Assembly (NCBI GenBank): GCA_905178155.1
Contig: CAJINV010000004.1
Location: forward strand, 5,000,619 to 5,064,618
Direction of reading: 5' to 3'
From: Amoebophrya sp. A120
Lineage: Eukaryota; Protista; Dinoflagellata
DNA length: 64,000 bases
The position numbers and the translations under genes are program-made. Positions within the stretch are counted from its first letter, which is position 1; every line of letters starts with the position of its first letter. The notes beneath the pieces are model-generated. The model saw nothing but the letters and a program-made list of their open reading frames with translations, was not told the DNA's origin and did not search any database. Below are positions 1-25,454 of this stretch, one piece after another.

Positions 1-75
1 CAGGTCTAGCTGGTATCTGTTTTATGCATGGCAAACTATTTCAACTTTGTCGATTTCAACTCTGACACATCCATA
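1..75. mobile_element. Partial introner (right end), family D
   Basis: Ends ...TTTGTCGATTTCAACTCTGACACATCCATA, nearly identical to the right end of element 62478-62786. Left end is outside the window. Confidence 0.75.
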
Positions 76-5413: not shown

Positions 5414-8400
5414 TCAACCCTGTCGTTCCTCCGTCTGCGTCCTCCCACAGCACGGCTTGCACACCCAACTTTCGGCGCATTTTGCCTTCACCGTATCCAC
5501 GTGCATGCTAAAATCCCCCTCGCTTTTCGGTGGGCCGAACATGAGCAACATCGACATGAACCAACCGACGGTGAACACTAACGAAAGGAACACCGTTAAG
5601 GAGATCATGGTGGCCATCTTGGTAAAGAAGGTCAGCGTGCAGGCGAACATCAGAAGTCCTGCAGCCGCGGTGGTGGAGGCACCGGCGAGAATGGTGCCGC
5701 CCATGTGGCGCAGGGAATACCTGGATTTTTGTTTGTGAAATTTTATTTCAGTGTTGACACTGTAGCTGTAAGCATTAATCACGAACTTCAGCGCCGCAAC
5801 GAACATCACCACAAGGACGAGGAAGTAGTAGATGTACATGAAAAAAGATCTGCATCTTCATTGAACCACGACAGCTCTAAAAGTACTACCTTGACTTCGC
5901 TAGCCTGCCAATCAGCCCTTCCTCGGTGGCTTCGCCCCAGATGTGCCCCATGTGCAGGGTGTAGTCGATGGAGAAACCAATCACAATGATCCCGCTGATC
6001 ACTTCCACGGCCCCCAACGACCACCCCAAAGCGTATTTGAACGTCCCGTATGCATTGCAAAAGTCTCGTACTAGTGTAAATTGCATCACAAATTTTGTCA
6101 AGAAGAAAAATGGAATTTGTAATGCTTATTTACCTAAAAAGGGATATTTGTCATGCATGATAGCAATTACTACGAGTACAATACTTTTGCACAGGATATC
6201 CCCATCACCACGCCGACAATCTGCACAATCGTCAACATGGCAAGCGAGGAAATGATCCAGTTCTGCGTCGCGAGTAGCAACACGCAGTAGGAAATCGGGA
6301 AACAGAGCGACAAACCCCGCATCAAGGTCTATGAAAGTACACAACTCCCCCTCCCCCTCATTTGTCATGCCAAACGCCTCATTTACGCCCTGGCTCTTGG
6401 CACTGTTTGCATGACAAGTTCTAGCAGCCCAAATAGCACAACAATCTTGCGGCCGAAATTTGTCATGCAAAACCGGTAATCTTGCTGATGCTTGTGCTGC
6501 TGTTCATGCAATACACGTGAGGGGGAGGGGGAATTGTGCACTTTCATAACGTCTCCAACAAGGCCACTTCCACCGCGTACCAGGGCCAGGACAAAGGGGT
6601 GGTCTTGTATGAACTGCAAAAGCATCGTACTCGTACTGCAATCATGCATTACAAATCTTTTTCCTAAGGTAAATCCGCATTACAAATTTGATCTCTCATG
6701 TTGCTGAGGGAATAAAAATTTGTAATGCATTTATACGAGTACGATACTTTTGCAATGCATATCTGGATCGGCGGGCCCATCTGGGAGATGGTGGGCAGCG
6801 TGTCCGCAATGGCCTCGTATTTGTCGTACAAGTCGCCTCTGGTCTTGTGCGCCTGCAGCATTTTCAAAGTCGACCGGTGCGACATGGAAATGTACTTGAT
6901 TTGATCGTTGATCACCCCGATGTGCTTTTTCCAGTGCTCGGGGATGTTGTCAGAGTTTGTTGAAGGGGAATGCGTTCCCGGTTTCTGGGTTAACCGAAAT
7001 TCCTTCAGAGCTGTTGCGAAGTCGGTTTTTGATGCGAAAATCTGCTTGTAGTTAGATGTCGAAATTTGCGTTGCGTTCCCTGTAGTTGTTCCAGGAGTTG
7101 TGATGGTGTAGTTCCCACTGGCTTGTAAATACGCCAAAAATTCGTTCATCGGACACAGATGCGTGTCCAAAATCGTCAACGGCTTCTGTCCGTTGATCAG
7201 AGCAGTCGTAGGCGGTTCGCACCCGTGGTGGGCGCAGGTTTTCTGCTGCATGTCTGTGCACGCTTGGACCAGCTCCGGAAATCCTTCGTAGTAGTCGAAC
7301 TGGGCCCGGTACTGTGGTGTCCCCCGGTTTTTGAAGGGGATCCACTTGTTGTAGTCCTCCCGGTCGATGTACTCGGAATTTTCGTCGAAACCGTAGGTGA
7401 TCGACACCGGGACATATTCTGTTGTGGGTTTGGAGAGAAACAACTGCGACTCCCGAGTTGAAAAGTCGTTGTACATGTGTCCGTCCGGAAACCATTTCTC
7501 CTCTTCGACCGGCGGCTCCAGTTGCAGCGCCTCGGTGATGCCGTAAATCGCCCAGCACGAGAGGCCGAAAGCGATCAGGAGCGGGATGGGGAAAATTCGG
7601 CAGGTGGAAGAGGATAGCAGAGACATGTTTGGGCTCGCGGCGCCAACACCCGTTGTGGGAGTGGTGGTTGGGGTCGACGACGTGGCGTCGATTTTCCTTG
7701 TAGAGGAGACACGAATTTCTGTAGATTTTGTCGTCGCGGCACCATGATCACCTGCGGCAGTAGGGCAACTATTATCGCCTTGTGCTCCTGCTTCTATCCC
7801 CGCCAAATCTTTCGTGTTTGACCGCGACGCCTGTCTCGATACGTTTTTACTGGACGTTGTGTCGACTGACTCCCGCAACATCTGCTTGATCCCATTTCGC
7901 CGGAAGGAGACTGATTTCGACTCCGTGTCAATCCGGACCTCGAGCAGAACCAACATCACCCAGTACCACTCCCAGTAAGACTCAATCTCTGTGCCGTCAT
8001 AGGAGTTTTGCGTTTCCTGCTCATCGGATAGTTGTAGTACATTCGCAAGTTGATGTTCTCCCTCCAAAATTCTCCCTGGCTCAACGTCAACACTTGACGT
8101 CGCAGCTGTTGTAGTTGCGCCGACGTCGACGACCACTGGCGGCGCGCCGTACGCAGGCGTGGTGTCGCGGGAGTCGTTGAGGGCCGCGTCTTTGCTGTGC
8201 TTCAAATCCACCACTTGCGTCGCGTCGCCGACGATAGGCAAAGCAGGTGCGCCAGCTTGTCCTGCTTTTCCTGTAGTCCCGCTACTTTTTCCCCCATCAT
8301 GATGAACAACCTGCGCCACCTTGCAGCAAGCGAGTTTGAAACAAAAACATCCGTTTCTCGCGCAGCACTTGCAAAATTTCGAGTCGACGAAAGCCGTGTC

Positions 8401-11245
8401 GGCGAGGTAAAGCACCGCGGGGAGATTCACCATGGCGAAAATGTAGTTGCTAATGATCAACAGAGACGCGTAGATCCCGAACCCACTAATCGGCATAATG
8501 GGCGAATATGAGAGTGCACAACTCCCCCTCCCCCTCGTTTGTCATGCAAAATCCCAAATCCAGTTGCTGCCTTGTAGCACTGGTTGCATGACAACTTCTG
8601 GAAGCCCAGACAGTATTACAAAAGGCGCATAAATTTGTCATGCATAGGCTCCATGTGTGCTGGTGTCTGTATTGCTGCTCATGCCATACAAATGAGGGGG
8701 AGGGGGAGTTGTGCACTGTCATACCGAAACCGCGGTCGCGATGAATGCCGCCGTTGTGGTGAAGGACGTGTTGAACACGGCAACGTAAGCTCTGTTCAAC
8801 GCCTTCAACAGCGCGAGTTTGTATTCCCGCTTCGTCAACGGCTCACTCACGTCGAACTTCGCCTGTTGGATTTGCACCTTCGCCGCTTCGTAGCAATCGG
8901 ACAAGACGAACACATCGTCCGCGCCGATTCCGCAGGCGAGAAAGAGGCCGGTGATGTGGAGCTGGGTGAAGTAGAAGGCCTGGCCAACGACGCGGTACCA
9001 GAACAGCGCGAAGGGCAGGGTGAGGGAGATTTGCGCGACCGCGACGGAGGCGAGAAACGCGGATCTGGTGTGGAGCATATGCATTGCAAAAGTGTCTGGG
9101 TCTGGAAACTTGTAATGCTGCGTTGGGAATAGTGAATGCTCTGTAATGCACAGGCAAGCATGAGAAATGTCTGCGCTTCTTTGTGTTGCGTTTTTGGCAT
9201 GACAAACTGCGTTTTTGCATGACAGGCAACAGGGTCTCTTCTTGGACACGCATCACAAACTTTTTGGTCATGCCAGACAAGCATGACAAATGCAAATCTC
9301 GCACTCTCCCAGATGACCCAGACATTTTTGCATTTGATAGAACAGAATTAAAAGCCAAACGGCAAAAATCGCACCCATGATGAAGTTCTGATCCTCGACC
9401 ACCGCCCGCTGGAACTCGACTTGGCGTATCGCCAGCTATGAACTGCAAAAGTATGTATCGCACTCGCATAAATGCATTACAAATTTCCTCAGCATGACAA
9501 ATAAAATCTGTAATGCGATGAATTTACCTTAACAAAAGGATTTGTAATGCATGATTGCAATAAGAGTGCGATACTTTTGCACAGGATACCAGCCCGTGGT
9601 ACGCCATCTTGATCCCGAGCGCGTCGTCTTTGAAAGCTTCGGAATCGGACAAATGCGACCCCTCAAACGGAGCCGCGACCTTGAGGCCAAACCGGCTCGC
9701 GATCCGCTCGTTATTACAGTGAAATATGCCCCCACCCCCAAAGTTGAAAAAATTTGTGATGCGAAGTTTCCAAATGAAAACTTTTTGCCATGCATGAAAA
9801 GAGTATGAATCTTTCTGATGCAGAGGCTAGGCGTGTATTGCATCGCTTACATGACAGGCGCCACCCTTGCTGGGGTCTTTTGCAATGCAAATTTTTGCTA
9901 TTCACGATTGGAAACCTGTGATGCTGATAGATGCAAGCGGGCAAGCGTTTCATTTGGAAAGGTTTGCAATACAAATGCTCCCAAGTTCGGGGGTGGGGGC
10001 ATTTTTCATTGTAATACTCGTCGACCCGCATCCAGAGGTCCCGGAACGTGTCGACGAATTGTTCGATGAATTTGTCTATGAACTGCAAAAGCAACGCACT
10101 AGTATAAATTGCATTACAAATTTGCTCAGCATGAGAAATAAAATTTGTAATGCGGATTTACCTTAGGAAAAAGATTTGTAATGCTTGACTCCAATTACTA
10201 CGAGTACGATACTTTTGCACAGGATATTGTCTTCCTCCGCCGTGTACCCCGGTGCCGGAGCACCCAAATGGATCAGCGACCGGGTTTTGGTGGAAAAGGG
10301 GCGTGGATTCGTGCTGGTCTGACTGTTCAGAAACTCTTTGTCCACAAAATACTGGTACAACGCCTGCTCCTGCCCGGTGGTCAAAGAGCTGTTCGTCGCT
10401 TTCGTGTAGAGCTCCTGTTTCTTCGAGGAAAAGGTTACGGCATCGAGCAGCGGACAGCTGTAGTCATTCAAGTTTCCGTAGAAGAAGTTCGCCAAGCTCG
10501 CGGCATTTAACACGCAGTCTGTAAAGGGTAAAAACCCGGGGACGTGCGAGGTTCCGTTCGTGGACTGTTTCAGCAGTCTCGTTGCGGCGTTCCCCCGCCA
10601 ACAGGTCTTCGCGTAGTCTTCGTCTTTCGTGACGTAGGATTCCATTTGACAGACGAACTGCACAAACTGCGGAGTGAAAATCTCGGAATCCGACTGCTTG
10701 AAGAACAAAAACGTGATCGAATTCCGGTAGCTGACTTGTGTGTAGGCCGCGGTTTGGTCGGTCAAGCCGAGATTGTTGTTGTCCGATTCCCGGACAAGGA
10801 TTTGTGCCTCTTTCAAACAGTCCGTCTCCCGGGCGATTTGACTGTCGATCGGGTACCAGGCCACAATGCCCGCGTCCTCCGTGATCAGACTGATTCCCGT
10901 GATGGAAACGTGCGCGACCAAGACGAAAACGAAAAAGCATACGCAGCCGAAAAACCCGCAACACTGCTTCCAGGGCCGTTCCACCGCCCCATTGGCGATG
11001 CGGTACCGGAGCCGGCGGGAAAAATAGGGGTCGGACTCGCCGAGGGTGAGCATCTCCTCCGCGAGCCCGAGGGTGGCACCGATGTTTGCAGTCGTGATCA
11101 TTGGCGGAGAACCTGGTGGAGGTAGGCTGCTGGCGTTGTTCTGCATTGGCTTTTCTGTTTCCGCCGAATCCGCGGCCGCGGTGTTGAAAGTGGTGGTCAT
11201 CACTTCGGGGTCGTTGGGACTCACTACCGAATCAGAAGTGGGCAT
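5414..11245 (-). CDS. Dispatched/Patched-family RND transporter with sterol-sensing domain, 10 exons, ~1,337 aa
   Basis: TM4 motif GIGADDVFV, TM10 motif GFSIDYTLH and GGTILAGASTT. Removing 8 introners (each plus 5 bp) and GT-AG intron 5721-5889 leaves 4014 nt in one frame. Joins include EEDKFIE, VDERIAS, LILFHTRS, TAVSPIMP, ETLMRG, VMGTFK and KSRYSL. Confidence 0.9.
6049..6198. mobile_element. Introner family A (150 bp)
   Basis: TATGCATTGCAAAAG...CTTTTGCACAGGATA; flanks TCCCG/TCCCC; removal restores frame. Confidence 0.85.
6330..6548. mobile_element. Introner family C (219 bp)
   Basis: TIR TATGAAAGTACACAACTCCCCCTCCCC; flanks AGGTC/ACGTC. Confidence 0.85.
6608..6761. mobile_element. Introner family A (154 bp), opposite orientation to 6049
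   Basis: TATGAACTGCAAAAG...CTTTTGCAATGCATA; flanks TCTTG/TCTGG. Confidence 0.85.
8507..8723. mobile_element. Introner family C (217 bp)
   Basis: TIR TATGAGAGTGCACAACTCCCCCTCCCC; flanks GCGAA/CCGAA. Confidence 0.85.
9078..9339. mobile_element. Introner family B (262 bp)
   Basis: TIR TAT-N4-TGCAAAARTGTCTGGGTC; flanks GAGCA/GAACA. Confidence 0.85.
9437..9588. mobile_element. Introner family A (152 bp)
   Basis: TATGAACTGCAAAAG...TTTTGCACAGGATA; perfect direct repeat CCAGC. Confidence 0.9.
9712..10016. mobile_element. Introner (305 bp)
   Basis: TIR TATTACARTGAAAWATGCCCCCACCCCC; perfect direct repeat CTCGT. Confidence 0.9.
10077..10226. mobile_element. Introner family A (150 bp)
   Basis: Perfect direct repeat TTGTC; removal gives AEEDKFIE. 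Confidence 0.9.
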
Positions 11246-13164
11246 CTTGGTTCATGGTAGCTTTTTTGACATAATGGGTTGGAAGATGAAAAACAAAAAG
11301 TTTCTTTAGATTTTCAATATAGAATTTGTAGTATTTAATTGCTTTTGCAGCAAAGAAATGAAAAACGGATTTTTTTCAAGACCTAGAATTTGCATCTCCG
11401 CCTCCGCCATGCGTGCAACTAGCTTGAGCTTGTGTCACAACAAAATGATTAGTAAAAGCACTAATCTTCTACAAGGCGGAAGGACAAGAACCATACCTAT
11501 GAGAAAAAAAACAGCAGCACAGCAGGGTATGCCACCAATCAAAAAACAGCTTTTTTATCAGCCAATCACCGAAATATTGACTTTCATTTTCGCCATCTTA
11601 TTCTTGTATCTTTCCCGCTATTCGCTCAACTCGCATAGCCATATCCGAGGGTGGAAAATTAGCCTGTGGTGTGCATTTGTGGAACGCCGCGCACAAAAAA
11701 ATCATGAAGGTGGTAGCCAGGAGACCACTTCTTGTTTTTTCACTTTCTCATGGCAAAAAATAAAGGTCCACTCATGATCAGCCGCGGTCACTCTTCTCGC
11801 TTCTACCATGCCCTCGAAAAAAAAGTTCATACTCTTGCCCTCCTCCTGAGGACGCTGAGGATGACACTCTTGCTGCTGTGTCGATGAATAAATGAAGTTC
11901 AGCTCGACGTCCAGCTGCACATCGTCATAAAATGGCGCATCTCGAAAGAACTAAACTTGAACACCTCTCCTTGCCGGGTGTGGTGGGAACGCGAGTGCTG
12001 TGGCGCAGAAGTGTTTTTTTTTTTTTCAGCTCGAGGATATCAAGACAAAGAAAAGCTAAAGTGTGATGGGTTTCCCGCGTCGTTATCATGGTGGTGTACA
12101 GTTTTTTTAGCTCAGGACGGATACGGAAAACATTATTGGCATTTGAACTAAGTGACAGGAAAAGAAGAGGCACAAGGGAAGATGGTGACACAACCCCATC
12201 AGAGATTGATGCGCATCTTCACCCCTTGATCTTCATATCCATGCAAAGGTTAGTTTGATTAAGGTGTAAAATTCTTCTCATACGACGCTTTTCATCAACG
12301 TATTTTTTTCGTGGACATTTTGTTTGATAGATTCCGAATATTCATCCTATAGTTGTAAGTTTCGAAAAAAATGAAAGAAAAGAACCTGAAGAACTATTGT
12401 GCGGCAAAAAAATGTACATGTCACCTTTTTGAAAAATCGAAGCAGGGCTCCTGCCAAGAAACGCGGGGGGATTTGAGGGGGTAGAGTGGGTAGTTGTCCC
12501 TCAACATCTTCGTGTCTGTTATTTTCAAATCAAAAAAAATTGCGAGCACAGTTGACCTACTTTTGAAAGAAATTCAAATGAGAGTAAATCAATATCGCTA
12601 TCGCTTGGAATAATTGTACAAAAATCAAATTTTTGTTTACAAGTGAAGCCGGCGAAAATCAAGTTCAAGACAAAAGCAATATCGTACACGAAAAAGCAAC
12701 TGCGTAGTACAGAAAACCTATTTATGCTGTTCGTTGTAGCAGTAGCACAACTAGAGGCTGTAGAGGGTATTGTTATTGCAATGTAAAATAATCCAAAAGA
12801 GATTCCGAGCAATGTTTTGTTGTTACTTTTGTTACCTGCTTTAAACTAGAAAACGAAAGAAACGAAAACCTGTAGAAATAAACAGTAAAATTCACGACGG
12901 TGCGTCGACGTGTCGTCAAGAACATGGTAGTTAGAGTAGAAATAAGCTCTGTTAAGGTTACTTTTAAGCCGGATGATTTCTATTTCTTCGCAAATAACAT
13001 GAAGCTGCAACGACAAAGTTCATTGAGCTGGATCGTGCACAGCTCAATTGCATATTACTTACATGCTCAGAAGTTGAAGTTGACTGTACTTTCATAAGCC
13101 CGAAGCGCCAAACGATCTTGCATTTCCTAATGTTAATGATCTCTCCTCCTTGCGGACCTTCTAT

Positions 13165-16100
13165 CTAATAATACAAGTCTTCGCTTGCCGAGCTGCTCTG
13201 TACGCTTCCGCTGGGATCGATGTCGTCCACGTCGTCCGTAGCACCATCGTCCGGCTGCCCGAAGGCCGCAAACGGGTTTGCGGACCGGTTCATATTTCCG
13301 CCTCCGCGTGAGGTTCGTGGATTGAGGACCCGGTTGTTCCGCAACATTGGACTTTCCGCCCGTGCCGGCGGGAGGTTCAACGCGCGGGTGGAAGACCGGC
13401 GGGTGGTCGATGCGCGTGTGTTGTTCTGGTTCGAGTACGAACGCGGGCCTGCGTTTATTGATCGGTCCTGCATTATATTGCTGACGAAATTGGTTGTTGT
13501 TTCCCGATCTACTTGCGATGACAGTGTAGGCTCAACATTGCGGCTTGATACTCCTCTTCCGGTTGTAGTGCTTCTGCGAGAAGCTGAGCCACCACCTCCC
13601 ATCATCATGCCTCCAAGCCCCAGCGCCGCCCCAGGACTGGAATTAATCACCGACCGTCCGGAGGCCGAGGCGCCACGCAATCTATCCCGCGCGATCTTTT
13701 GCTTCGTAATCCCATCCCAACTCGCGAACGTCGCTTTCGCGAGTAATTCCCGCCTGCAATTCCTGTAGTACCGCAACACGTTTGCTCTGTGCGCGATCAA
13801 GCTCCACCGGCGGAGAATGGGTCGCATGGACTTCGCGAAGTTCTGCTCCGCGAGCATGCGTTCTAAATTGTCCACGCACATCTCGTGCCGCTCGCTCAGC
13901 TGCTTCATCGGGATGGTGACAATGAACCACTGGAGCAAAACCCGGTTCATTAAGAGCTTCTGCTTCACGTCCCCGAGTTTCTCCGCGTGCATTCTTGCGA
14001 ACGACGCCTGCATTCGCCGCATCCGCCACGTCCGGAAGAGATGCACTTTGCGCAATTTGTGCTTCGAGGCCGAAAAATCCGTCAATGATTCGGTCAGCTG
14101 GAACCGCGATTCCGCGCAGACTAACTTCCACCGGTAAAGGATCTCGGATAACAGCGACATGTTGTTCAAATCGTTCCGGGCGTTATCCTGTGCAAAAGCA
14201 TCGTACTCGTAGTAATCCCATTCATGCATCACAAATTTCTTTCTCAAGTTAAATCCGCATTACAAATTTTATTTCTCATGGTGAGGAAATTTGTATTGCA
14301 ATTCATACTAGTACGATACTTTTGCAATGCATAGGCGTGAACCAAGGACAATTTCGCCGTTGTCGCCTTCTTCAAGTTCGCGTTCAACGCCAACCGGGTG
14401 AACGAACTGAACAACTTCGCCCGTCTCTGGTGTCGGTCGCTCAGTTTGAACATGTGCGCCAAGTACATGTTTCGATCCGCTTCCCTTTGCAGTTGCAAAC
14501 CGACATGGGCGGAGTGCTTGACGCAGTGTCGCCACGCGTGGAAGATCTGAATACACAACTTCGCGTCGTGCGCAGCGGAGAACGCGGCGCCCACCCGGGA
14601 CAAGGCTTTCCGGGTGCGAATCTCGCTGTACTGGAGCTTGTCTACCTTGTCGACGTGGATATGGATTGTAAAAATGTCTGGATCTGGAAGGTTGGGACTT
14701 GTAATGCTAGCTTTTCATACCTAGAAAATCTGTATTGCATATACGAACAAAAGTCGCAGCCTCTTTTGTCATGCAAAGTCGCAGTTTCTCATGCGGATTG
14801 CCTATGAGAAAGCGTTTTGGGAAGTTGTCATGCCGGACTGCATTCGGAAGTGTTTTCATCATGCACATTTTAGCATCACAAGTTTCCAGACCCAGACATA
14901 ATTTTTGCATTTCATAGTGGATCAACGTCTGCCAGGATTGCATCACGTACGACATTAAATGCTTCGTCGTATCCTGTGCAAAAGTATCGTATTCGTATAA
15001 ATGCAAGTCTTGCATTACAAATCTTGTTCTGAAGGCAAATCCGCATTACAAATTTTCACTCTCATGCTGAGGGCATTTGTCATGCATTTATACGAGTACG
15101 ATACTTTTGCAGTTCATACGTCGTCGCGTCCAACAAATACGCGAAATGCTTCTCGATCCGTTTCTGCTTCACAATCTCCGTGCGCCAGCCCTGGAAACTC
15201 AGCTTCTTGATGGACTTGATGTGGTGGGTCGCGATTAATTTATCCTTCTGGTCAAAATGTCGGTCCTCATTGCTCTTATGCGCGTTGTGGTACCGCATGC
15301 CGTCCCGCCACTGCTTGAAGTAGCCGTAAAGTTCCGCCGCCGCAAATTTCGCGTTTTTCTCGGTCAACGCCGCGATCGCCGCCATCGCCTTCTTTTTCTT
15401 CTGCTCCTTCACGTACCGCAGCCACACGTCGAAAATCGTGTGCATCGACCGGCCGGCGAGGTGCTGTAAGAACAGAACATCGACCCCGTTGCTGAATTTC
15501 TCCTTATCCGTGCTGTGCTTCTGCCGGTGCTGCTTCACCCGGACCTCATGGATCCCGTGCAGCGCGAGTTTGTGCCACGCGTGGACCACCTTCCGCTTAC
15601 CACGGTCGGTGTGGAGATCGAGTTTCCCAACGACCGACCTGGTTTGGACGTTTTTCAAGTGCCCTTTCAACTTGTCCGTGACGAAGCGGAATCTTTCGTG
15701 CTTCGTGGATTCCTTCCAGGCTTTGAAAAAGATCGTTTTTAATTGCGTGCTGTCCGTGATGTCGATCATGTTGTGGAGGGATTTGAGTAGCCTCTCCGCG
15801 TTGGTAATCGATTTGATCTCGATTTTTTCCTTCAGTGCTTCCGTCTTCGCGAGAGTTGCCTGGTAGATGATTTCCTTCCAGATTCTTAAAATCTGCAACT
15901 GCAAATTCTTATCGTTCTGCGCTAGCGCGAGTTGGAGTCGCCTGTAACTTGCCGATTTTTGCGCCTCCTGCTTCTTTTTCTCTACCGCTTCGTCCTCGCG
16001 TCGTTGCTTCTCCTGCGCTGTGAATCCCGCCCAAGTTTGAAACGTTACCCTTTGTTGCCAACTGTGCAGCTTGGTGGCGAAGTCCAGCGCGTGCTTCTTC

Positions 16101-19100
16101 GCGCGCTCTTGGGCGAGGTTCTGTTTTGATTTTTTTTTGGATTACAAATTGATTCAGCATATTACGAGATGAAATTTGAATTATTGCGTAATGCATAAAA
16201 AAAGCTACAACTATCAGTACCATTTTCACGACCACGGTCTCGATTTCCGCCATTTTCGCTCCGTTTTTCACGACATCCTGCCAGGCGATGATGGTTCGCA
16301 ACTTCAAGAACTCCGCGGCGTGTTCCACCTTGGTTTGCGCGAAGGAAAACGCGACGTCCTTCGTCTGCAACTTTGCCTCCCGGAGTAATCTTTCTTTCTT
16401 CTCTTCGACCGCCGTGTCGTGCCACAATTCGACGAACTTCTTCAGCAATTCCGACTCGTCCGCGACCCCGCCAAACTTCCCCCACAAGCGGATTGCGCCC
16501 AAAGTTGATTTCAACTCCAATAACCTCCCATTCATCGCCTGCATTTCCTGCTCCACCTTCGTCTGCTCCGCCCAGGCTTTGAACACCATGGTCTTCGTCG
16601 CTATCGAATGCAACAATGTCTGGGTCTGGAAGGACCCGAACTTGTGATGCGAGTTGTGGACCATACAAAGATCTGTGTTGCATGACTGGCATTAGGTGCT
16701 CACTTCTGGTCATGCTGAGTGGGTATTTCTCATGCAGAATAGGCATCACGGAGGGGCAGGAGAACCTGTGATGCTCGGCCCCGCATTCCAGACTTGAGGG
16801 AGCTAGAGCTTGGAAAACTTGCATGACAAATCTCGGAGTCTCCCAGACGCAGACAAGTTTGCAATGCATAGTCGCCCGCGCGTCCTTATTCGCGGCGGTG
16901 AAGACCGCTTGAGTCGCGTAGTTGTTCATGGACTGTTTGATTTTTTCCTTTTCCCGCGCCATTTGCTGGTCGAAAATGTACTTTTTCCACTCCCTCCACA
17001 TCATCTCCATCAGCATAGTGGCGGACTTGTGCCCGAAAGCAACTTTGAGTCTAGAGACCATCTGCTGTCTGGAGACATCATTCAACTGGTCCGCCAACGC
17101 GTCCCTTGCCTTATCCGTTTTGTTCTTCTTGTACAAGTCCGTCCAATGCCGCATAGCGTTCCGGAGAATAGACCCCGGGTCTTGCGCGAAGGCGATTTGA
17201 AGTCGGGTGAACCCAGATTCAGTTGCTACTTCTTTCAATTTACTCTCCATCGCGTCGGACTCGCGGTTGTTCTTGATCTGTTTTACGACTTGCTTCCACA
17301 GATCCATGGCATTTTGCTTCAAACCATGGAGAGTTTCACTGCACAGCGCGTCGAAGGTCTTAAACGCCCTTTTGTAATACCGCTGCGCCTCTTCGTGTTT
17401 CCGCTGGTATTTTTCATCGTGCGTCAACTTTCGCCACGCTTTCATGTGGTGCTCGAGGATGAAGTGTTTCACCGCTTTGATGATGATTTTTTCCTTCGCG
17501 GTTAACCTTGCGTTCGACTTTTCCTCCCAAAACCGGACTTCGATCATCTTCTGGTGCCCCAGCTCCTGTTTCATTTTCTCCATAGCCTGCTCGTGATCCT
17601 CGTCCCCCTTGCGAGTCTCGACGGAAAATTTCCAGTAGTGGAACGCAGAGGTCATCAACGCAGCCGATTCTTTCGCGTTCAATTCCATGGATTTCATCAC
17701 TTTCATCGACGTGTTTTTCTTGTCCACGAGAATTTTCTGCATGGATTTCGCGTTACTCGCATCCACGGAGAGAACGTGCCAGCCGGCAAAACAAGCTTGC
17801 TTCAACACGTCTGGGTCGTCCATCGCGATTAACCTTCTTGTTTTCGCAAATTTCCACCCTTTTTCCACCTGTTCCCGCTTCTTCTCCATTTCTTGGTGCA
17901 GAACCTTCTCCGCCTTCGCCTGTCTTGTGATGTGCGCCCATTCCCGGACGATGTCTGAAGTCATGAAACTCGTTTGCTGCCCGAATAGGTCGACGCCCAT
18001 GCGGGACATCACTTTTAAAGCGCATTGCCTCGCGAATTGCTCGGACCGGAAGGCTTTTTCCTGCAGGGTCATCGCCTTCCACTCGCCGAAAACAACTCCC
18101 GCCATTTTCAGCGTGTCGTTTTTGTCGACTAACGCGAAAACTGTTGATTTGTTCTGCATCATTTCCTTCCGCATCTCTTGTAACTTCCCTGACGCTTCAT
18201 TCTCCTCCTTCGCAACGTGGACCCGCAGGTGCCAGGCGCCGAACACTAGCTGACACAAATCTCGGTTTGTCCGGCTGTCGTGCGCGTGGTCGAGTAAGTC
18301 GGTGATGAAGAAGTGGCTGAAGTCTTCCATAGACTCTGTGATTTCCGTCTCAAACGCGGCCAGGTACTGCCCGACGGTGTCTTGGTCCTCCGCCAAGTCG
18401 ATGGGCGGGAGACGGGGGGAGAGCAAAGGGAGTTTTCTCTCCTCCGGTATTTCAATCGCGGACGGTAAATCCGTGACGGTTGCCGGGATTAGTTTATTCG
18501 TGTGTTTTGTTGGCGTGGACGGTGGATATGGCACGTTATTCAAGATCGTGGGCGGGACCACTCCACCGGCTGCTGAAGATGTTATTGCGCCACCAGCTTG
18601 GACCATTTGAGCTGTAGATCTCCCTGCAGGCTGGAACAATTGCGTCTGCGGTGTTGATCTACTAGCGTTGCTGTTGTACTTGTTCTGGATCACAGAACTG
18701 CTCGCCGCAGCCCCGGTCGCCGCACTGCTCGCCTGACTCGCAGTGGATGCGCCAGCAGCGGAGGCTTTGAAGGCGAACGGTGGATTTGAACTTAAGTAGC
18801 TCCTACCGCCCTGCACGTACTGTGGGGATCTTCTCGCTTCGGATTTTGCAGAACTCGCGGATCCAGACACCAAATACCCTTTCGATTTCACTTCGGCATG
18901 CGGCTCAGGGCCTCTATTGTCCACTTCCAGTACCACTCGGCTTTCCGGCTGCGGAGAGACTGTATAGAAGGAGAAATGGTGATCGCCGACAGTGATCATC
19001 TACCAAAGAAAAATCGCAGCACACCCTCGCGGAACGGGTTTGCTTTTTAACGGACCGAAAAAATGGCGCAGCTTTTCGCAGAGTGTGGCAGTGTTCACTG

Positions 19101-22100
19101 CGCACATTATGCGAGCAGTGCTGGAGATGGGAAAGGCCGACAATGGCCGGACGCTTCGGGGGCCCCAGGTGCTTAGTTTTCATGGTTGCTGGGCGCATGA
19201 AACCACTCTTCCCGTCTGGCCACGAGCGCCCACGCGTTTTGGTCGTCGAGCGCTCTTACCTCGGCCGGGGCGCGGCGCTTGAAGAGGGTCGGGGCCATAG
19301 CGTAGAGCCGGTTCGTTTGGACTGCCATCCCCCGCCTGGTTCGGGCCCGGCTCTGTGCCTCGACCTTGCCCGCCTGCCGCGAATGCGTCAAGGCATCGAC
19401 GGGCCGGGGGCCCGGTTCACGCACTTAAATCCGATGACGGCTGGCTTTTGCGTGCCGCCAAGGGCAGCAAATACACGGAGCCGGCGGAGAAGCGGCTCCG
19501 ATACGTAAGTACTAGCAACAAGCAACGGAGGCCATGCCGTCGGTTCTTAATTTGCACCGACGGCACGACGCAGTTTGGTGAAGAGAAAGAACGCGGCGCG
19601 ACTTTCGCGCCCCGGCTTCAACATGAAGACGGCGAGGCACCTTGCTGCACGGCCGCGGCAGCTCCTGCGGCGAGTCTCTCATAGTCGGCGCAGGCACGGA
19701 CCGCGATAAACACTCGCTATGCCATCACGCAGGGCCCCGGCCTAGCGCCTGCCAAGAAAGAACAAAAGCAGCGCCGCCAAATATATATAAACTTCGCCCG
19801 GCGACGAAGCGCATGCCCCGCCCGGCGCAGCCGCGGAGCCGGCACACCTGAGAAGGGCGCAGAACTCCCAAAGCAGCCACAGCGCTGCACCGCCTCGAGC
19901 CTGGCTGCCAGTTCCTGCACCGGCCTCGGGCCCCGAACTGTGAGCGGCTGCCCCACTTGTAATTTGCAGGCCCAGCCTGGAGCCAGGGCTTCCGGGCCTT
20001 CAAGGAACTGGCGCAGAGCATACTATAGCAAGGCGTTGCTTCTTCATCTTCTTCGACAACGTGCTGCATTTCTCGCAAAGAAACGCGTTGTCGGAAATGA
20101 GTGTCGGAAGACGACAGAAAAACACTGATCTAAATGAGAGTCGAGTCACTGATCATGAAACAAAAAGACCCTAGTTGAATGGTGATCATCAAATCAAAAA
20201 AGTCGCTTGATGATCACCATTGCCACGAGCTAACAAAGGTGATCATCAAATCAAAAAAGTCGTTTGATGATCACCATTCAACTAGGGTCTTTTTGTTTCA
20301 TGATCAGTGATTCGCCTCTCATTTAGATCAATGCTTTTCTGTAGTCTTCCGGCACTCATTTCCGACAGCGCGTTTCTTTGCGAGAAATGCAGCACGTTGT
20401 CGAAGAAGATGAAGAAGCAGCGCCTTGCTATAGTATGCTCTGCGCCAGTTGTTCCTTGAAGGCCCGGAAGCCCTGGCTCCAGGCTGGGCCTGCAAATTAC
20501 AAGTGGGGCAGCCGCTCACAGTTCGGGGCCCGAGGCCGGTGCAGGAACTGGCAGCCAGGCTCGAGGCGGTGCAGCGCTGTGGCTGCTTTGGGAGTTCTGC
20601 GCCCTTCTCAGGTGAGCCGGCTCCGCGGCTGCGCCGGGCGGGGCATGCGCTTCGTCGCCGGGCGAAATTTATATGCGGCGGCGCTGCTTTTGTTCTTTCT
20701 TGGCAGGCGCTAGGCCGGGGCCCTGCGTGATGGCATAGCGAGTGTTTATTGCGGTCCCTGCCTACGCCGACTATGAGAGAGACGCCGCAGCTGCCGCGGC
20801 CGCGCAGCAAGGTGCTTCATCCTCTTCATGTTAAAGCGGGGGCGCGAAAGTCGCGCCGCGTTCTTTCTCTTCACCAAACTGCGTCGTGCCATCGGTGCAA
20901 ATTCAGCACCGACGGCATGGCCTCCGTTGCTTATTGCAAGTAAGTAGCGGCGCCGTTTCTCCGCCGGCGCCCGTGTATTTTTTTGCTGCCCGAAATGTAG
21001 TGGGCGATGGCGGCACGCAAAAGGCAGCCACCACTGGATTTGAATGAGCCGGGCCCCCGGCCCGTCGATGCCTCGACGCCTTCGCGGCAGGGAGGCGGGC
21101 AAGGCCGGGGCACGAAGCTGGGCGCGCACCACGCGGGGGATGACAGTCCAAACGCGCCTGCTATACGCTATGGGCCCGACCCTCGTCAAGCGTCGCGCTC
21201 CGGCCGAGATCAGAGCGCTCGACGAACCAAACGCGTGGGCGCTCGTGTCCATGTAGGTGGAGTGGTTTCATGCGTCCAACAACAATGAAAACAAAGCGCC
21301 TGTGGTCACAAAAGCGCCCGTCCATTGTCGGCCTTTCTCAGCTTCAGCACTGCTCGCATAATGTGCGCAATAAACACTGCCACACCCTGGGAAAAGCTGT
21401 GCCATTTCTGCGGTCCGTAAAAAAAAACACCCTTTCCACGAGGGTACGCTGCGATTTTTCTTCGGTCCATGATCATGTCGGATGATCACCGTTTCTCCTT
21501 CTATAGACTGGTCGAGTTGCTGGCTCCTGGTAAATCAGCTCGCGCGGCACAATTTTCTCCGGGAAAACCGTGTTCGCGGAATGTACCCCGGCGGGGACGC
21601 GAGAACTTGGGCTGGGGGACCTGACCAAAACGTTCGGGGGTACGTGGCCGGAAATCAGTTTCGAAGACAAATCAGTTATTCTGGTGAACTGCTTCTTGGT
21701 GGCGATGCCCGCAAACTTTTTCGAGGCGTCCCCGCGCAGCAGTTTGTGCATGTTGATCGAAGTCCGCCGCAAGTGGCAACTCGCGAGATCCACGCCCGTT
21801 TCCGGGTGGACAACCAGCAAGTCCGTGTTTTTCCGCGGACTGAAAATCGATCTTCGCGCAACCGCCACCCGTCTGGACTCCGGCTCGTAGTCGGTTCCGG
21901 AGACCGAAGTGTCCGCCCCGCCGACCAGATCCGTCGGCACGCCGAGTCTCTCCGCCGCTTTCGCAGATGTATCGACGTATTCGCCTCCGTAGCAGCCAAT
22001 CCCGTTGGTGCGGACTGCGTAACCGAGGACGTTGGTCGCTAACGTGTCGAGAAACACCGCCATGGATTTCCCGACGTTCTGCAACCGGCGTAGAGACTTC

Positions 22101-25100
22101 ATGTCGCGCGTTTCAGCTTTCCAAGAATCGAAGACTTCATCGACTAACTCGTGGTTGTGTCGTTTGAACAAATACTCCTCCACGCATTCCAAGCTGGATT
22201 TGTGCTTCTTCTTCACCGCCTCCACCCGGTTTTTATGCACCGTGTGCTTCTCCCAGAGTTTGAAATACGTGTGCAGATGATGCCCAGGGTTGAAGTACAA
22301 GTTCGCCCCGACCATGCCGTCCAACTGCCCATCCCGTTTTTTCACCATCGCGACGGTTGTGTCCCGGATGTTATCCACCGCGAGCATGCGCCAACTGTCG
22401 AAAATTAACCGGATTCCCGACTCGGTAATGTGGCCGGCGAGGTCACTGGTCGCTCGGTGCACCACGTTGGTCGAAACGTACTGGAGTTTTTCCAGCTGTT
22501 TTTTCACTTTCTCCGCCTTCTCCGCGCCGACAATGTTGTACCAGGCGTTAAAGTAGTACTGCTGCAGTTTCTCCTCCTTCACGTCCCCCATGTACAGCGC
22601 CATTTTCTTGCAGTGCCCTTGTTTCAGTGATTGGACCCTCTCATGCGCGACGGCGGACTTCGTTTGCTGCTTCCAGCACAAATAGCACTTCGAAAGCAAA
22701 TGCTGCTCGTAGCTGTTGTGCATGTGGTGGTAATTCCGAAGGTGTTTTTCCTTATGCTGGTTGTCAATCCGGTCGATTTTGTTGTCAAGTTTGGCCTGGC
22801 GCCACAGATGGAACACGCAACGCTGCAACAGCATCCGCCCCGGGGCGATCATCTTCAGCTTCGTTTGCGGTTTATTCGAAAGTTTGTTTGCTTGTCCTGA
22901 ATTTTTGTTCGAATTAAGAACACCGCGACGAGACGGGCTGGCGGAGCTGCTTCGCTTGTTAGAAATGCCAGTGTTGCTGTAGTCTTCCTCCTCCTCTTCG
23001 TTGTCCATCTGTTGTTTCAAAGCCGTCGCGTCCTGCGCCCTATTATTCGGCACATTGACACTAATCGTGTGGCTATCCCCGTCCCTGTGGACTATCACCC
23101 GCGGGCCAGCCGGGGCGGACGTGCTACGGTCATGCGCAGCTCCTCCTCGCGCAGATGAGCCGCTGTCGAATCCGAGCAACGCGCGTCTTAGCAACAGCGC
23201 TCGTCTTCTTTGGATGCGGATGGAGTCCATCCTTCTGGCGGCTTTGTAAATCTTTTCCTGCTCTCGCTGATCCTTCTGAACGAAAGGAGAATCTCGGACG
23301 GGGGACGAAATCCTAGATGAAGTTGCGTTATTCGATGTCGTTCCTCTACCGGGCGACTTTGCGGAAGATGCTCCTGCTCTTCTCGGTGAGCTCCCGCGTG
23401 ACGACCCAAACGTCGGGGACAAACTCCTTCTGCGCTCGATCTCGTCCTCCGCGGCGAGTAAGGCGTTGTTTGCCGCGTGATGATCCAACAAATTCTTCAC
23501 CTTCTCCGACAGATCCCGGTGCACCTCTTCCGTCGACGCGACTAATTCCCCATCGTCCTTGTCGTCGATGTCGGTTAGTAAATTTGCCGTTGCGATCTCG
23601 TCGATGATGCGATTCGCCCGCTTTTCGCAGTGGACCAAAACCTTCCACGCCGTGAACTCCGCCCGGACCAGGTTGTTCGCGGTGTGTGTGTCCATCGCGG
23701 ATAATAACAACCTCTTCCCCCGGTTTAACTTTGTCGTTCGTTGCTTCCACTGGCGGAAGATCAGCCCGGATAAATTCCTACTTGTCGACAACCTGCCCGC
23801 CATTCGCCTCAGATAGATTTCCCGCTTTTTGTCGTAGGTCTCAAACTTCTCGAAGTTGACCGCCACCGCTTTGACCAGACTGCTGTACTTCCACGCGAGA
23901 AACCCGGTTCGCTCTAAGTGTTGTTTGTCGCTGTGGTCCGTGGCGAATTTCACCGCCTTCCTCCGGATCTTGATGATCAGCGACCTGCACCGCCATTTTA
24001 GGAAGTACACCCGCAAGAAAAACCGTTTTTGCAGCCGCAAGAACCGCTTCGCGAATTTGTCCTGCTGTTTCTGCTCGGTCTTCATCCCACCGGAATGCTT
24101 CGCGAGCGATCTCCACGGGGCGAAGGTGGACTGGAGAAGTTTCTTCTTCCGGGTTTTGACCTGCATGCGGAACAACCCGACCTCCAGCCGCTGGTAGGAT
24201 TTTGTCGTTGTCGCGTTGACACCTTCCACGAATTTCAATTCTTTCAACAAGCCCTCACTGTCGTTTTCCAGGGTGAGTAATTTCTGCTCCATGTCGAACC
24301 GATCGCCCCGCGCCGCTTCGGCGATTCTCCGCGCGTCCAGAGCCTCCATTAACAACTCGTCGCATTTATGCTCCAACGTCTGACTGCTTCTTTGTAACTG
24401 CCTATCTCCGGCCTCCCGCATCTCCGCCTGAAATTTCCGCAAAGCGACGTTTTCCCTTTCAACCGCTGCCAGGGCGTCCTGCTTGTAGTTCAACGTCTGC
24501 TCGGATTGCCGGTATTTCAGCTCCATCTGCCGGTAAATGTCGTCTTTTTGGTCGAGCTGTTTCTCGAGTTGTTCGATTTTTTCTTTCAATTCCTGTAAAG
24601 CGTCGGATTTGGCGTTTTCGCGGCCGTTCAATTTGTCGTTTTCTCGGACGAGCTTGTCGTTTTCCTTCATCAGCCGCTGCAGCTCCTTCTCGTGGTCCGA
24701 CAGGTTGCGCTCCAGGTCCTTCTGGAGCCCCGCAATGCCGCTTATCTGTGGTTTTTTGTTTGAAAATAAATAGTGCTTTTTCTTTGCACGTTTTAAGGTT
24801 GAATCAGAAAAAGATCATGTACTAGACAGATGATATTGACAACTCCGACGTTCGCATAGCCATATTAGGTGGTCGTCAATGTTGAAGTTATGATTCTCTT
24901 TAAGGTTTACTCCGTATTAGGCTTAGGCACCAACAAAAAAAGCAGGCATGTTGAAAAAGCAGGCATGTTGAAAGAAAAACAATCACCTCTCTCGCCTCCA
25001 CATTTCTCAGCTTTTCCTTGACCCCGTCCAACTGCTTACATAACCTCCCATTTTCTGCCAGCAAATTCGAAATCTGCTGGGATAATTCCAGTTCTCGGTC

Positions 25101-25454
25101 CGTGAAGTACTGTTTTGTGTAGTTCAGTTCCTCCAGAACACTCAGGTCGGTTGGCCCGAGCCGCAATTTCCGCGCCGTAGACAACGGCGAGGTCGCCACC
25201 GGTCGTGTGGTGGCGGGCGCGGCGCCGGTGGGTTGGTTCGTCTTGTTCGGCATCGGGAGAAAGGAATTCGGCCGGGACAGCGCGCTCGTGGGGGTTCTTG
25301 GGGACCGGGGGACCCCGGGTGTCGCAGCGGTGGTCGGTGGTCGTGGACTGCGAGAGAGTCGGGCTGCGGAAGTAGAAGGGGTGGCACCTGCTGCTCCGGA
25401 GGACGAGGACGTCGCGGGATTCAACCCGCTTCGACCACTACTGCCAGGAAGCAT
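13165..25454 (-). CDS. Large Sfi1-like (centrin-binding type) Trp-repeat/coiled-coil protein, 8 exons, ~2,851 aa
   Basis: Many periodic (L/I/V)F..W(K/R) helices and an N-terminal coiled coil. Removing introners 14184, 14660, 14970, 16602 and 18963 (each plus 5 bp) and GT-AG introns 16121-16220 and 24746-24986 leaves 8556 nt in one frame. The family call is from motif resemblance only. Confidence 0.75.
14184..14333. mobile_element. Introner family A (150 bp)
   Basis: Perfect direct repeat GGCGT; join SLVHARND. Confidence 0.9.
14660..14916. mobile_element. Introner family B (257 bp)
   Basis: Perfect direct repeat GTGGA; join TLIHVDK. Confidence 0.88.
14970..15118. mobile_element. Introner family A (149 bp)
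   Basis: Perfect direct repeat CGTCG; join DATTKH; reverse-complement relative of 10077-10226. Confidence 0.9.
16602..16870. mobile_element. Introner family B (269 bp)
   Basis: Perfect direct repeat GTCGC; join ARATKT. Confidence 0.88.
18963..21505. mobile_element. Giant foldback (palindromic) introner, 2,543 bp
   Basis: Ends TATAGAAGGAGAAA...TTTCTCCTTCTATA; direct repeat GACTG at 18958-62 and 21506-10; two ~1.2-kb inverted arms; removal gives in-frame EPATRPVSPQPES. Confidence 0.92.
20178..20275. repeat. Twin hairpins at centre of palindrome
   Basis: GGTGATCATCAAATCAAAAAAGTCG(C/T)TTGATGATCACC occurs twice in direct orientation (20181-20218, 20238-20275), separated by a short spacer. Confidence 0.9.

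Follow-up and report, generated by a model that had tools for sequence, protein, structure and literature searches.

The window, that is, the whole 64-kb stretch of Amoebophrya sp. A120 DNA analysed, carries, within a coding exon, a non-coding foldback of 2.5 kb that is a copy of a likely DNA transposon, and the non-canonical splicing of the host likely removes it as a giant introner of the A120 type; the probability of this reading is put at about 0.8. Its ends and direct repeat, an exact skip of 2548 nt in an RNA-like run, the full-length protein restored by this skip, an ortholog free of the insert and nearly identical arms with different flanking sequence were all observed. The features of the element, to none of which a strand is assigned, are:

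18958-18962: left copy of the target-site duplication (TSD), GACTG (CAGTC in the sense direction), one copy being retained in the mRNA
18963-21505: nearly fully palindromic foldback element proper, 2543 nt, starting with TATAG and ending with CTATA, non-coding; with one TSD it makes up the 2548 nt that the transcript contig in run X6 lacks
21506-21510: right TSD copy, GACTG, direct repeat of the left copy
18963-20192: left-type arm with a 14-nt perfect terminal inverted repeat (TIR), subterminal TGATCA and a GC-rich middle; 98.7% identical to positions 1044-2119 of contig L001 and about 98% to a differently flanked X6 contig
20264-21505: right-type arm, 99.2% identical to L001 positions 1-991
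20024-20432: AT-richer core (42% GC) of 409 nt, itself TATAG..CTATA, with mirrored flanks CATAC/GTATG and no TSD
20178-20278: central hairpin AATGGTGATCATCAA-loop-TTGATGATCACCATT, two copies at 57-nt spacing, with a summed contig depth of about 90 and variant letters in X6

The initial annotation had described these ends, the GACTG flanks and two GC-rich inverted arms of about 1.2 kb, and the alignments agree with it. Global alignment of one half of the element against the other gave 1129 matches, 113 mismatches and 59 gap columns, and a blastn self-match of the arms reached 87.0% across 2587 columns. The GC content is 59% overall, with 63-66% in the middle of the arms, 47-49% at the ends and 42% in the centre. 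Self-comparison of the window revealed no other inverted repeat of several kilobases. Scanning it for a 5-nt direct repeat accompanied by an inverted repeat of at least 8 nt returned nine matches, against two to six in each of five shuffled controls, and among the nine only the foldback element attained a mismatch-free terminal inverted repeat of 14 nt. Pairing of the arms over 1.2 kb is far beyond chance. The terminal letters read TAT AGAAGGA GAAA, so that at both ends the A-run comes one base late relative to the TAT-N7-AAA motif; it stands in the motif place at one or both ends in 9 of the 12 short elements listed in the window. The motif TGATCA occurs 29 times in the window, nine of them inside the element, at its ends and centre.

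The arms are not uniformly alike. Their outer 450 nt are about 86% identical (65 substitutions) and their inner 450 nt about 97% (12 substitutions), a gradient with P=1e-10. The 409-nt core carries neither a terminal A-run nor a TSD, and an ordinary nested insertion was ruled out for it by the mirrored flanks and the missing TSD. Likeness between the termini and the centre is weak, as 31-33 of 1000 shuffles score equally high. The variant letters found in X6 at a depth of about 90 indicate that the central hairpin is common to other copies.

Left-type arms beside other flanks, for which a search with the arms had been suggested earlier, were found both in L001 and in an X6 contig. L001 combines a right-type arm lacking its last 90 nt or so with a left-type arm beside a different flank, and it stops on both sides 2 nt inside the end of its internal CTATAG. 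The arm types are separated at 121 columns in both the window element and L001, while the two copies are only 0.6-0.8% apart. The X6 contig holds a third left-type arm, which differs by 19 substitutions and 25 gap letters, with 29 non-fitting letters past its end, and agrees with the left arm at 98 of the 103 left/right differences. Neither L001 nor X6 showed a complete second copy having both TIRs and a TSD. The left/right differences are thus fixed between copies, which rules out decay after insertion as the source of arm divergence and, together with the low divergence of the copies, argues for a recently moved family rather than an assembly artefact.

Removal from RNA is supported by one cDNA contig of one run, X6, while the other three raw RNA runs (X9-X11) yielded 1, 3 and 1 reads from about 3 million records each and were uninformative. 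The X6 contig joins position 18956 to 21505, skipping 2548 nt (side 255, depth 5.8); by a rough measure, the depth at the joint lies beside 6.45 and 5.72 in the flanking bins. X6 also lacks six further introns of the host gene, two with GT-AG borders and four that are short TAT..ATA introners. X6 therefore behaves as RNA, a status judged by its behaviour and not by its record. The cut position is ambiguous over 6 nt, and none of the seven registers of the 2548-nt cut has GT..AG borders. Canonical splicing was rejected, since use of the one GT..AG pair present by chance would remove 2549 nt and break the frame. The host gene is arranged as follows:

13165-25250 (ends approximate), minus strand: whole host gene, 8 exons, 2784 aa after removal of the seven X6 joints
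21505-24745, minus strand: host exon on the upstream side of the element, in the P0001 frame and with homology to residues 83-1290 of the AT5 protein P0003
16871-18956, minus strand: host exon on the downstream side of the element, with 42% identity to P0003 from its residue 1303 on

Taken together, the seven joints (the two GT-AG introns, the four short introners and the giant) yield a single frame of 2784 aa ending in SEDLYY, and the AT5 ortholog has 2818 aa and ends in SEELYY. Retention of the element would leave 1179 aa. Fusion of the two frames on excision of the element and one GACTG had been predicted, and the 2548-nt removal indeed joins them as ..QEPATRP-V-SPQPES..; the ortholog runs uninterrupted through the insertion site (LIYQEPATRP|TGG). 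The prediction of a precise non-canonical intron is thus supported. Both flanking reading frames had also been taken as intact. They are open across the two exons, but 16162-18999 does not form one continuous exon: the exon covers 16871-18956, and 16597-16870 and 16121-16220 are further introns. The one full-length homolog that was found is from Amoebophrya AT5.2 (39-45% identity), and a search of P0001 against 1.84 billion representative sequences returned two matches only.

The kind of element is known. Introner elements of A120 have non-canonical borders, a TAT start, a direct repeat of 3-5 nt and a TIR of 8-20 nt; they lack a transposase, are repeated and are removed from mRNA (PMC7789003). 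The giant is likewise missing from the X6 cDNA, has a 5-nt repeat, a TAT start, non-GT-AG borders, repeated arms and no transposase, and short members reside in the same host gene. It thus follows the TAT..ATA/5-bp rule of the short introners at about ten times the usual size, as first noticed. Non-canonical introns of A120 average 240 nt in an analysis that spanned 40-1000 bp (PMC7789003), whereas the giant has 2543 nt and fixed left and right arm types. Its perfect TIR of 14 nt falls within the published range of 8-20 nt, but pairing continues for about 1.2 kb. According to PMC12130899 (supplement file 8), the A120 introner set of Gozashti et al. 2025 comprises 58 families, which include DNA-type introners with TIRs like the giant. 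Among these, fam38 is noted as '5-bp TSD, TA/TA termini', fam14, fam15 and fam56 are labelled palindromic and have 105-165 bp, and fam200 has 4 copies with alignment edges 31-2527, is unclassified and has no TIR call. By description, the giant is close to fam200 in length (2486 nt once the central 57-nt duplication is left out), and none of the six weak Pfam names of fam200 was recovered in it; fam103 and fam135, of about 1.19 kb, are likewise set beside it by description. A full-length foldback introner of 2.5 kb is not described in the available parts of the Farhat 2021 and Gozashti 2025 accounts, the fam200 length of about 2.5 kb notwithstanding. Of the earlier proposal of a giant, possibly undescribed introner class, the giant foldback variant therefore stands, and the class itself had already been described (PMC7789003; PMC12130899, whose supplement has both short palindromic and multi-kb A120 families).

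Literature searches combining foldback with introner found no paper, and those on foldback or palindrome elements as spliced introns found nothing relevant. Foldback transposons (FB/Galileo of Drosophila, MULE-derived elements of plants) have non-coding, TSD-flanked inverted arms of kilobase length, FB and MULE-derived foldbacks having a TSD of 7-11 bp and tandem subrepeats in the arms; none is known to be a precisely spliced intron. Inverted arms also span most of the giant, but its TSD has 5 bp and its sole direct repeat is the central duplication at 57-nt spacing. Euglenid nonconventional introns have an end-pairing structure, non-GT-AG borders and TSD-like repeats, and reach several kilobases (PMC11282704; PMC12501133). 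Those introns belong to an unrelated lineage and are described as pairing mainly near the ends, and their 5' N3CDG signature is absent from all seven registers. In PMC2836005, Ginger1 is given TGTNR ends, 4-bp TSDs and TIRs of 40-270 bp, and TDD-4 and TDD-5 make 5-bp TSDs. The giant shares TIRs with such integrase-type transposons and the 5-bp TSD with TDD-4 and TDD-5; unlike Ginger, it has TATAG termini, a 5-bp TSD and no transposase.

In the proposed mechanism, a DDE transposase or integrase encoded elsewhere would bind the TAT.. ends and move the whole unit, and its 5-bp staggered cut would create the TSD; integrase-like mobilisers are hinted at for A120 introners in PMC12130899. In the RNA, pairing of the arms would form a stem of about 1170 bp, at the base of which the two CAGTC copies come to lie next to each other. 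The machinery of the short introners might then read the stem base and ends only, cut within the repeats and join the exons, so that the codons present before insertion would be restored regardless of orientation or length. The fold prediction is in line with the double-stranded stem that had been expected to unite the junctions: 1169 arm-to-arm pairs and -2357 kcal/mol, where one exon stretch of the same length gave -895 kcal/mol. The foldback itself may have originated by an inverted duplication centred on the 409-nt core as a putative palindrome seed, which would have mirrored about 1.06 kb of flanking DNA including a TAT-type terminus. Homogenisation between the arms could then have preserved the likeness of their inner parts, with the outer parts diverging ahead of the recent spread.

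A more far-reaching reading, possible but rather doubtful at present, is that giant foldback introners form a family of their own, which arose through inverted duplication around short palindromes and which an integrase moves in units of 2.5 kb. Its members would be excised at the base of the kilobase dsRNA stem by a structure-guided cut-and-ligate reaction that needs no spliceosomal signals, and a long hairpin or circle would be released. If so, non-canonical splicing in Amoebophrya would be spliceosome-independent and would neutralise any TSD-flanked inverted-repeat insertion of any size.

The giant had also been regarded as a possible deletion derivative of the autonomous element mobilising the TAT introners, its long TIRs left facing each other. 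The long TIRs, the transposon-like ends, TGATCA at ends and centre, and an X6 loose end with different sequence joined before 20114 could fit such a parent, as could one automated call of 5627 bp with a TIR of 5623 under fam25 in PMC12130899. This origin is nevertheless unlikely. None of the 73 six-frame element ORFs of at least 20 aa matched a Pfam family at cutoff, as expected from the original view that no credible protein is encoded, and the arm substitutions lack codon periodicity (longest block 27/25/17). Pfam on 20 long window ORFs assigned no family to the host gene or to three element ORFs. The centre is a clean symmetric hairpin without a deletion scar, and the X6 variants are hairpin sequence too. 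In the scanned collections, the only other match of the terminal 22-mer (L001) carries the same non-coding arms; this 22-mer and a central 24-mer had no matches in viral contigs, nor did the left arm match phage sequences in blastn. No transposase or integrase for the mobilising element was found in the present data.

The 2548-nt skip might instead reflect a reverse transcriptase jumping across the hairpin (a falsitron). The known substrate of such jumps is a stable hairpin between short direct repeats, with one described example of about 2.4 kb (PMC8240250), and the giant has this geometry; moreover, the cut is ambiguous over 6 nt and the evidence is all cDNA. This is quite improbable, since the flanking exons (2.1 and 3.2 kb) stay open and AT5-homologous, retention would shorten the protein from 2784 to 1179 aa, no drop is seen in the rough depth values at the site, and X6 contains no right-arm contig. 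Furthermore, over 60% of the introns in A25 and A120 are non-canonical (PMC7789003), so that a cellular mechanism for such removal presumably must exist.

Marginally less probable again is RNA from cells lacking the insertion, through a polymorphic empty site or excision at the DNA level, in which case splicing of the giant would not be needed. The family moved recently, its copies being 0.6-0.8% apart, and long palindromes are unstable in DNA. Against this, the X6 exon pieces have no differing letters from the window over more than 4 kb, which makes the same strain likely, and four other TSD-flanked introners are gone from the same transcript. Runs X1 and X2 contain 0.91 and 0.90 of the sampled words, against 0.655 for the exons alone, although these runs could come from the very sample that was assembled. 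Long-read and amplified libraries are known to yield inverted duplications as artefacts, but a chimera is hardly credible here, as the arms are 13% different and TSD-flanked, the independent contig L001 bears both arm types at 99%, and the RNA joint takes out exactly the element and one TSD; the earlier argument against it thus gains weight.

On the preferred reading of a giant A120-type introner removed by the host, the element bears on how Amoebophrya removes the more than 60% of its introns that lack GT-AG borders, with no U1 snRNA detected (PMC7789003), and on what moves them. In an almost fully double-stranded 2.5-kb intron, hardly any single-stranded stretch is left that could serve as branch point or pyrimidine tract, which narrows the mechanism to recognition of the ends or stem base. 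The giant is a convenient test object, as its excised product would be large, distinctive and stable, with lariat, circle and linear hairpin distinguishable; it also permits testing whether cDNA artefacts account for the non-canonical introns. Its fixed arm types, together with the recent copies, offer a handle on foldback origin and on the missing mobiliser.

Among the 104 arm mismatches, 31 give G-U pairs on the sense strand and 27 on the antisense strand, with no sign of selection for a sense-strand stem. Rfam gave six matches at E up to 1, none reaching the gathering score; the best one, MIR831 (46 of 100 bits), is explained by the central hairpin. The window has co-oriented genes and TAT-type introners, which fits A120.

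The limits of the foldback insertion and of its centre in the host gene (13165-25250, minus strand) are as follows:

18963-21505, 2543 nt: giant element proper, starting with TATAG and ending in CTATA, with GACTG at both flanks
20024-20432, 409 nt: core, itself TATAG..CTATA and AT-richer, with mirrored flanks in place of a target-site duplication (TSD); the metagenome contig L001 breaks there on both sides

Aligned half against half, the element gives 1129 matches, 113 mismatches and 59 gap columns, and in a self-comparison of the window it is the sole multi-kb inverted repeat (87.0%). The GACTG-flanked TATAG..CTATA palindrome of the initial annotation is thereby borne out. Divergence between the arms is graded: they differ by 65 substitutions over their outer 450 nt but by 12 over the inner 450 nt (Fisher P=1e-10). 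GC content falls from 63-66% in mid-arm to 47-49% at the ends and to 42% in the centre, which holds two copies of a 44-nt hairpin spaced by 57 nt. The core lacks the A-run typical of introner ends and resembles the termini of the giant element marginally (31-33 of 1000 shuffles score as high). None of the 73 six-frame ORFs of the element reached the Pfam cutoff, no Rfam family reached its gathering score, and codon periodicity was absent from the substitutions between the arms. The proposal that it is a deletion derivative of an autonomous element is thus unsupported, and with nothing speaking positively for it, a deleted copy of such a parent is considered unlikely.

The terminal 22-mer was found at one locus among the metagenome contigs, L001 (JACKZZ010022925.1, 2119 nt), whose parts stand in this order:

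right-type arm, 99.2% to 20426-21416
52 foreign letters
left-type arm from TATAG, 98.7%, with a different flank

In the span common to the window copy and L001, left and right types are told apart by 121 columns, the same in both copies; like arms differ at 6 of 979 and 8 of 991 positions. A third left-type arm is a 1226-nt contig of sequencing run X6, with 19 substitutions, 25 gap letters and 29 non-fitting letters past the end; of 103 positions at which left and right differ, it has the left-arm letter at 98. Since the arm types are fixed and like arms nearly identical, divergence of the arms preceded the spread of the copies, the unit has moved in recent time, and it is not the assembly or amplification chimera that was already doubted at first reading. 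The right-type arm of L001 has no terminal inverted repeat (TIR), stopping about 90 nt early; L001 961-1049 represents either an insertion, nested or in tandem, or a subterminal region of variant sequence. Neither the metagenome contigs nor X6 showed a complete second copy, and X6 gave no right-type arm contig. Its sibling left-type arm (over 18962-20143, contig depth 20.9) may be a solo arm, a two-left-arm copy or a transcript that stops in the centre.

With the downstream ORF as query among longer proteins, one protein of 7983 scored was returned, Amoebophrya sp. AT5.2 g9139.t1 (P0003; 2818 aa, 45% identity), which the upstream ORF matches too. This ortholog is collinear with both flanks and reads LIYQEPATRP|TGG across the site, without an insert. 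The host protein has no Pfam match. It carries many F/L-x-x-W-K/R-like repeats, covering 25 of its 42 Trp, which resemble Sfi1 centrin-binding repeats.

Of eleven runs listed, none of them recorded as holding RNA, four were compared with the window. Three, all raw RNA, yielded 1, 3 and 1 reads and were uninformative; the fourth, X6, consists of cDNA contigs, assigned to RNA by guess. X6 behaves as RNA, since the host gene is represented in it without two GT-AG introns (16121-16220, 24746-24986) and without four of its short TAT..ATA introners. In one contig of this run, the joint 18956->21505 skips 2548 nt (shorter side 255 letters, depth 5.8). The listed exon pieces show no differing letter from the window. 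Three more joints (depth 7-11, short sides), lying within short introners, were excluded from the gene model; they stem from other copies of the family or have no explanation. Read across the seven joints used, the gene has a single open frame that starts at the first Met, is 2784 aa long and ends in SEDLYY (SEELYY in the ortholog), against 1179 aa in conceptual translation with the element retained. None of the seven possible registers of the cut offers GT..AG; a chance GT..AG pair at the borders spans 2549 nt and shifts the frame, so the observed cut is not canonical. The precise non-canonical intron first proposed, with its in-frame fusion of the ORFs, is therefore supported, and the giant element is real and very likely spliced.

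That reverse transcriptase produced the joint by jumping across a hairpin flanked by direct repeats is held to be very unlikely. Such jumps are a documented artefact (PMC8240250), and the X6 evidence comes from cDNA contigs; however, the flanking exons are intact and homologous on both sides, and depth is even across the site (6.45 and 5.72 in the flanking bins). Also very unlikely is that the culture which supplied the RNA carried an empty allele. The contained fractions of sampled words (0.91 in X1, 0.90 in X2, 0.74-0.75 in X3-X5, 0.655 expected from exons alone) would fit DNA with the element in X1 and X2 and RNA mostly without it in X3-X5.

Size range aside, the giant element largely matches what defines the introner elements of Amoebophrya. 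The window, with its co-oriented genes and TAT..ATA introners with 5-bp repeats, resembles Amoebophrya A120 as portrayed by Farhat (PMC7789003), where analysis was restricted to 40-1000 bp and inverted repeats were 8-20 nt. All 58 A120 rows of the Gozashti table (PMC12130899) were examined. Three are marked palindromic (105-165 bp), and automated calls in which the TIR takes up the whole length go up to 386 bp. The TIR of fam86 (1.6 kb) measures 84 bp, the unclassified fam200 has a length of about 2.5 kb, and a single automated entry in fam25 lists 5627 bp with a TIR of 5623. By these sizes, multi-kb introners are already published, and the present family may be among them unrecognised. No description of a spliced foldback with kilobase arms was found in the literature searched, including the accessible text of PMC7789003 and PMC12130899. 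The "giant, possibly undescribed introner class" of the initial annotation is thus weakened: the intron type is known, and the element would be a giant foldback variant of it. The element is a striking extreme, in size and structure, of a known, mechanistically unexplained intron type.

At the DNA level, a non-autonomous TIR element would be mobilised in trans by a DDE enzyme leaving 5-bp duplications. Farhat (PMC7789003) found no transposase in A120; Gozashti (PMC12130899) describes for A120 a family that has TIRs and is homologous to Copia/Gypsy, annotated "5-bp TSD, TA/TA termini", which suggests an integrase-like mobiliser. In the predicted fold of the sense RNA, the arms form 1169 pairs with each other (-2357 kcal/mol, compared with -895 for one equal-length exon stretch), and both copies of CAGTC come to lie next to each other at the base of the stem. 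Cutting within these repeats and joining would remove the element and one repeat, restoring the codons exactly whichever its orientation. Arm mismatches yield 31 and 27 G-U pairs on the two strands, favouring neither, which is consistent with orientation-independent removal. The catalyst might be a U1-less spliceosome, as proposed by Farhat (PMC7789003), or an endonuclease plus ligase. Most tentatively, an inverted duplication centred on the 409-nt core would yield this anatomy.

The window also carries short TAT..ATA introners, at least 12 in number and 109-322 nt long (6049-16870, 32951-33153, 45073-46044, 55186-55347, 61080-62786), including a multi-copy family of about 150 nt; the 5-bp TSD is perfect in 9 of the 12 listed and has one mismatch in 3. 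A Copia-type LTR retrotransposon (38579-44805) has TG..CA ends, GGTTC as its 5-bp TSD, LTRs that are about 520 bp long and 97.5% alike, and RVT_2 in ORF 40360-44178; its integrase leaves a TSD of the same length as that of introners. A tubulin-tyrosine ligase family gene lies at 36-1937 (minus strand). A SecA-like gene (57558-62476, minus strand; SecA_DEAD, SecA_PP_bind) is interrupted by the introner 61080-61232; its organism is reported to be without a plastid. A 41-nt near-perfect palindrome (57821-57861) lies within the long ORF 57558-61145.
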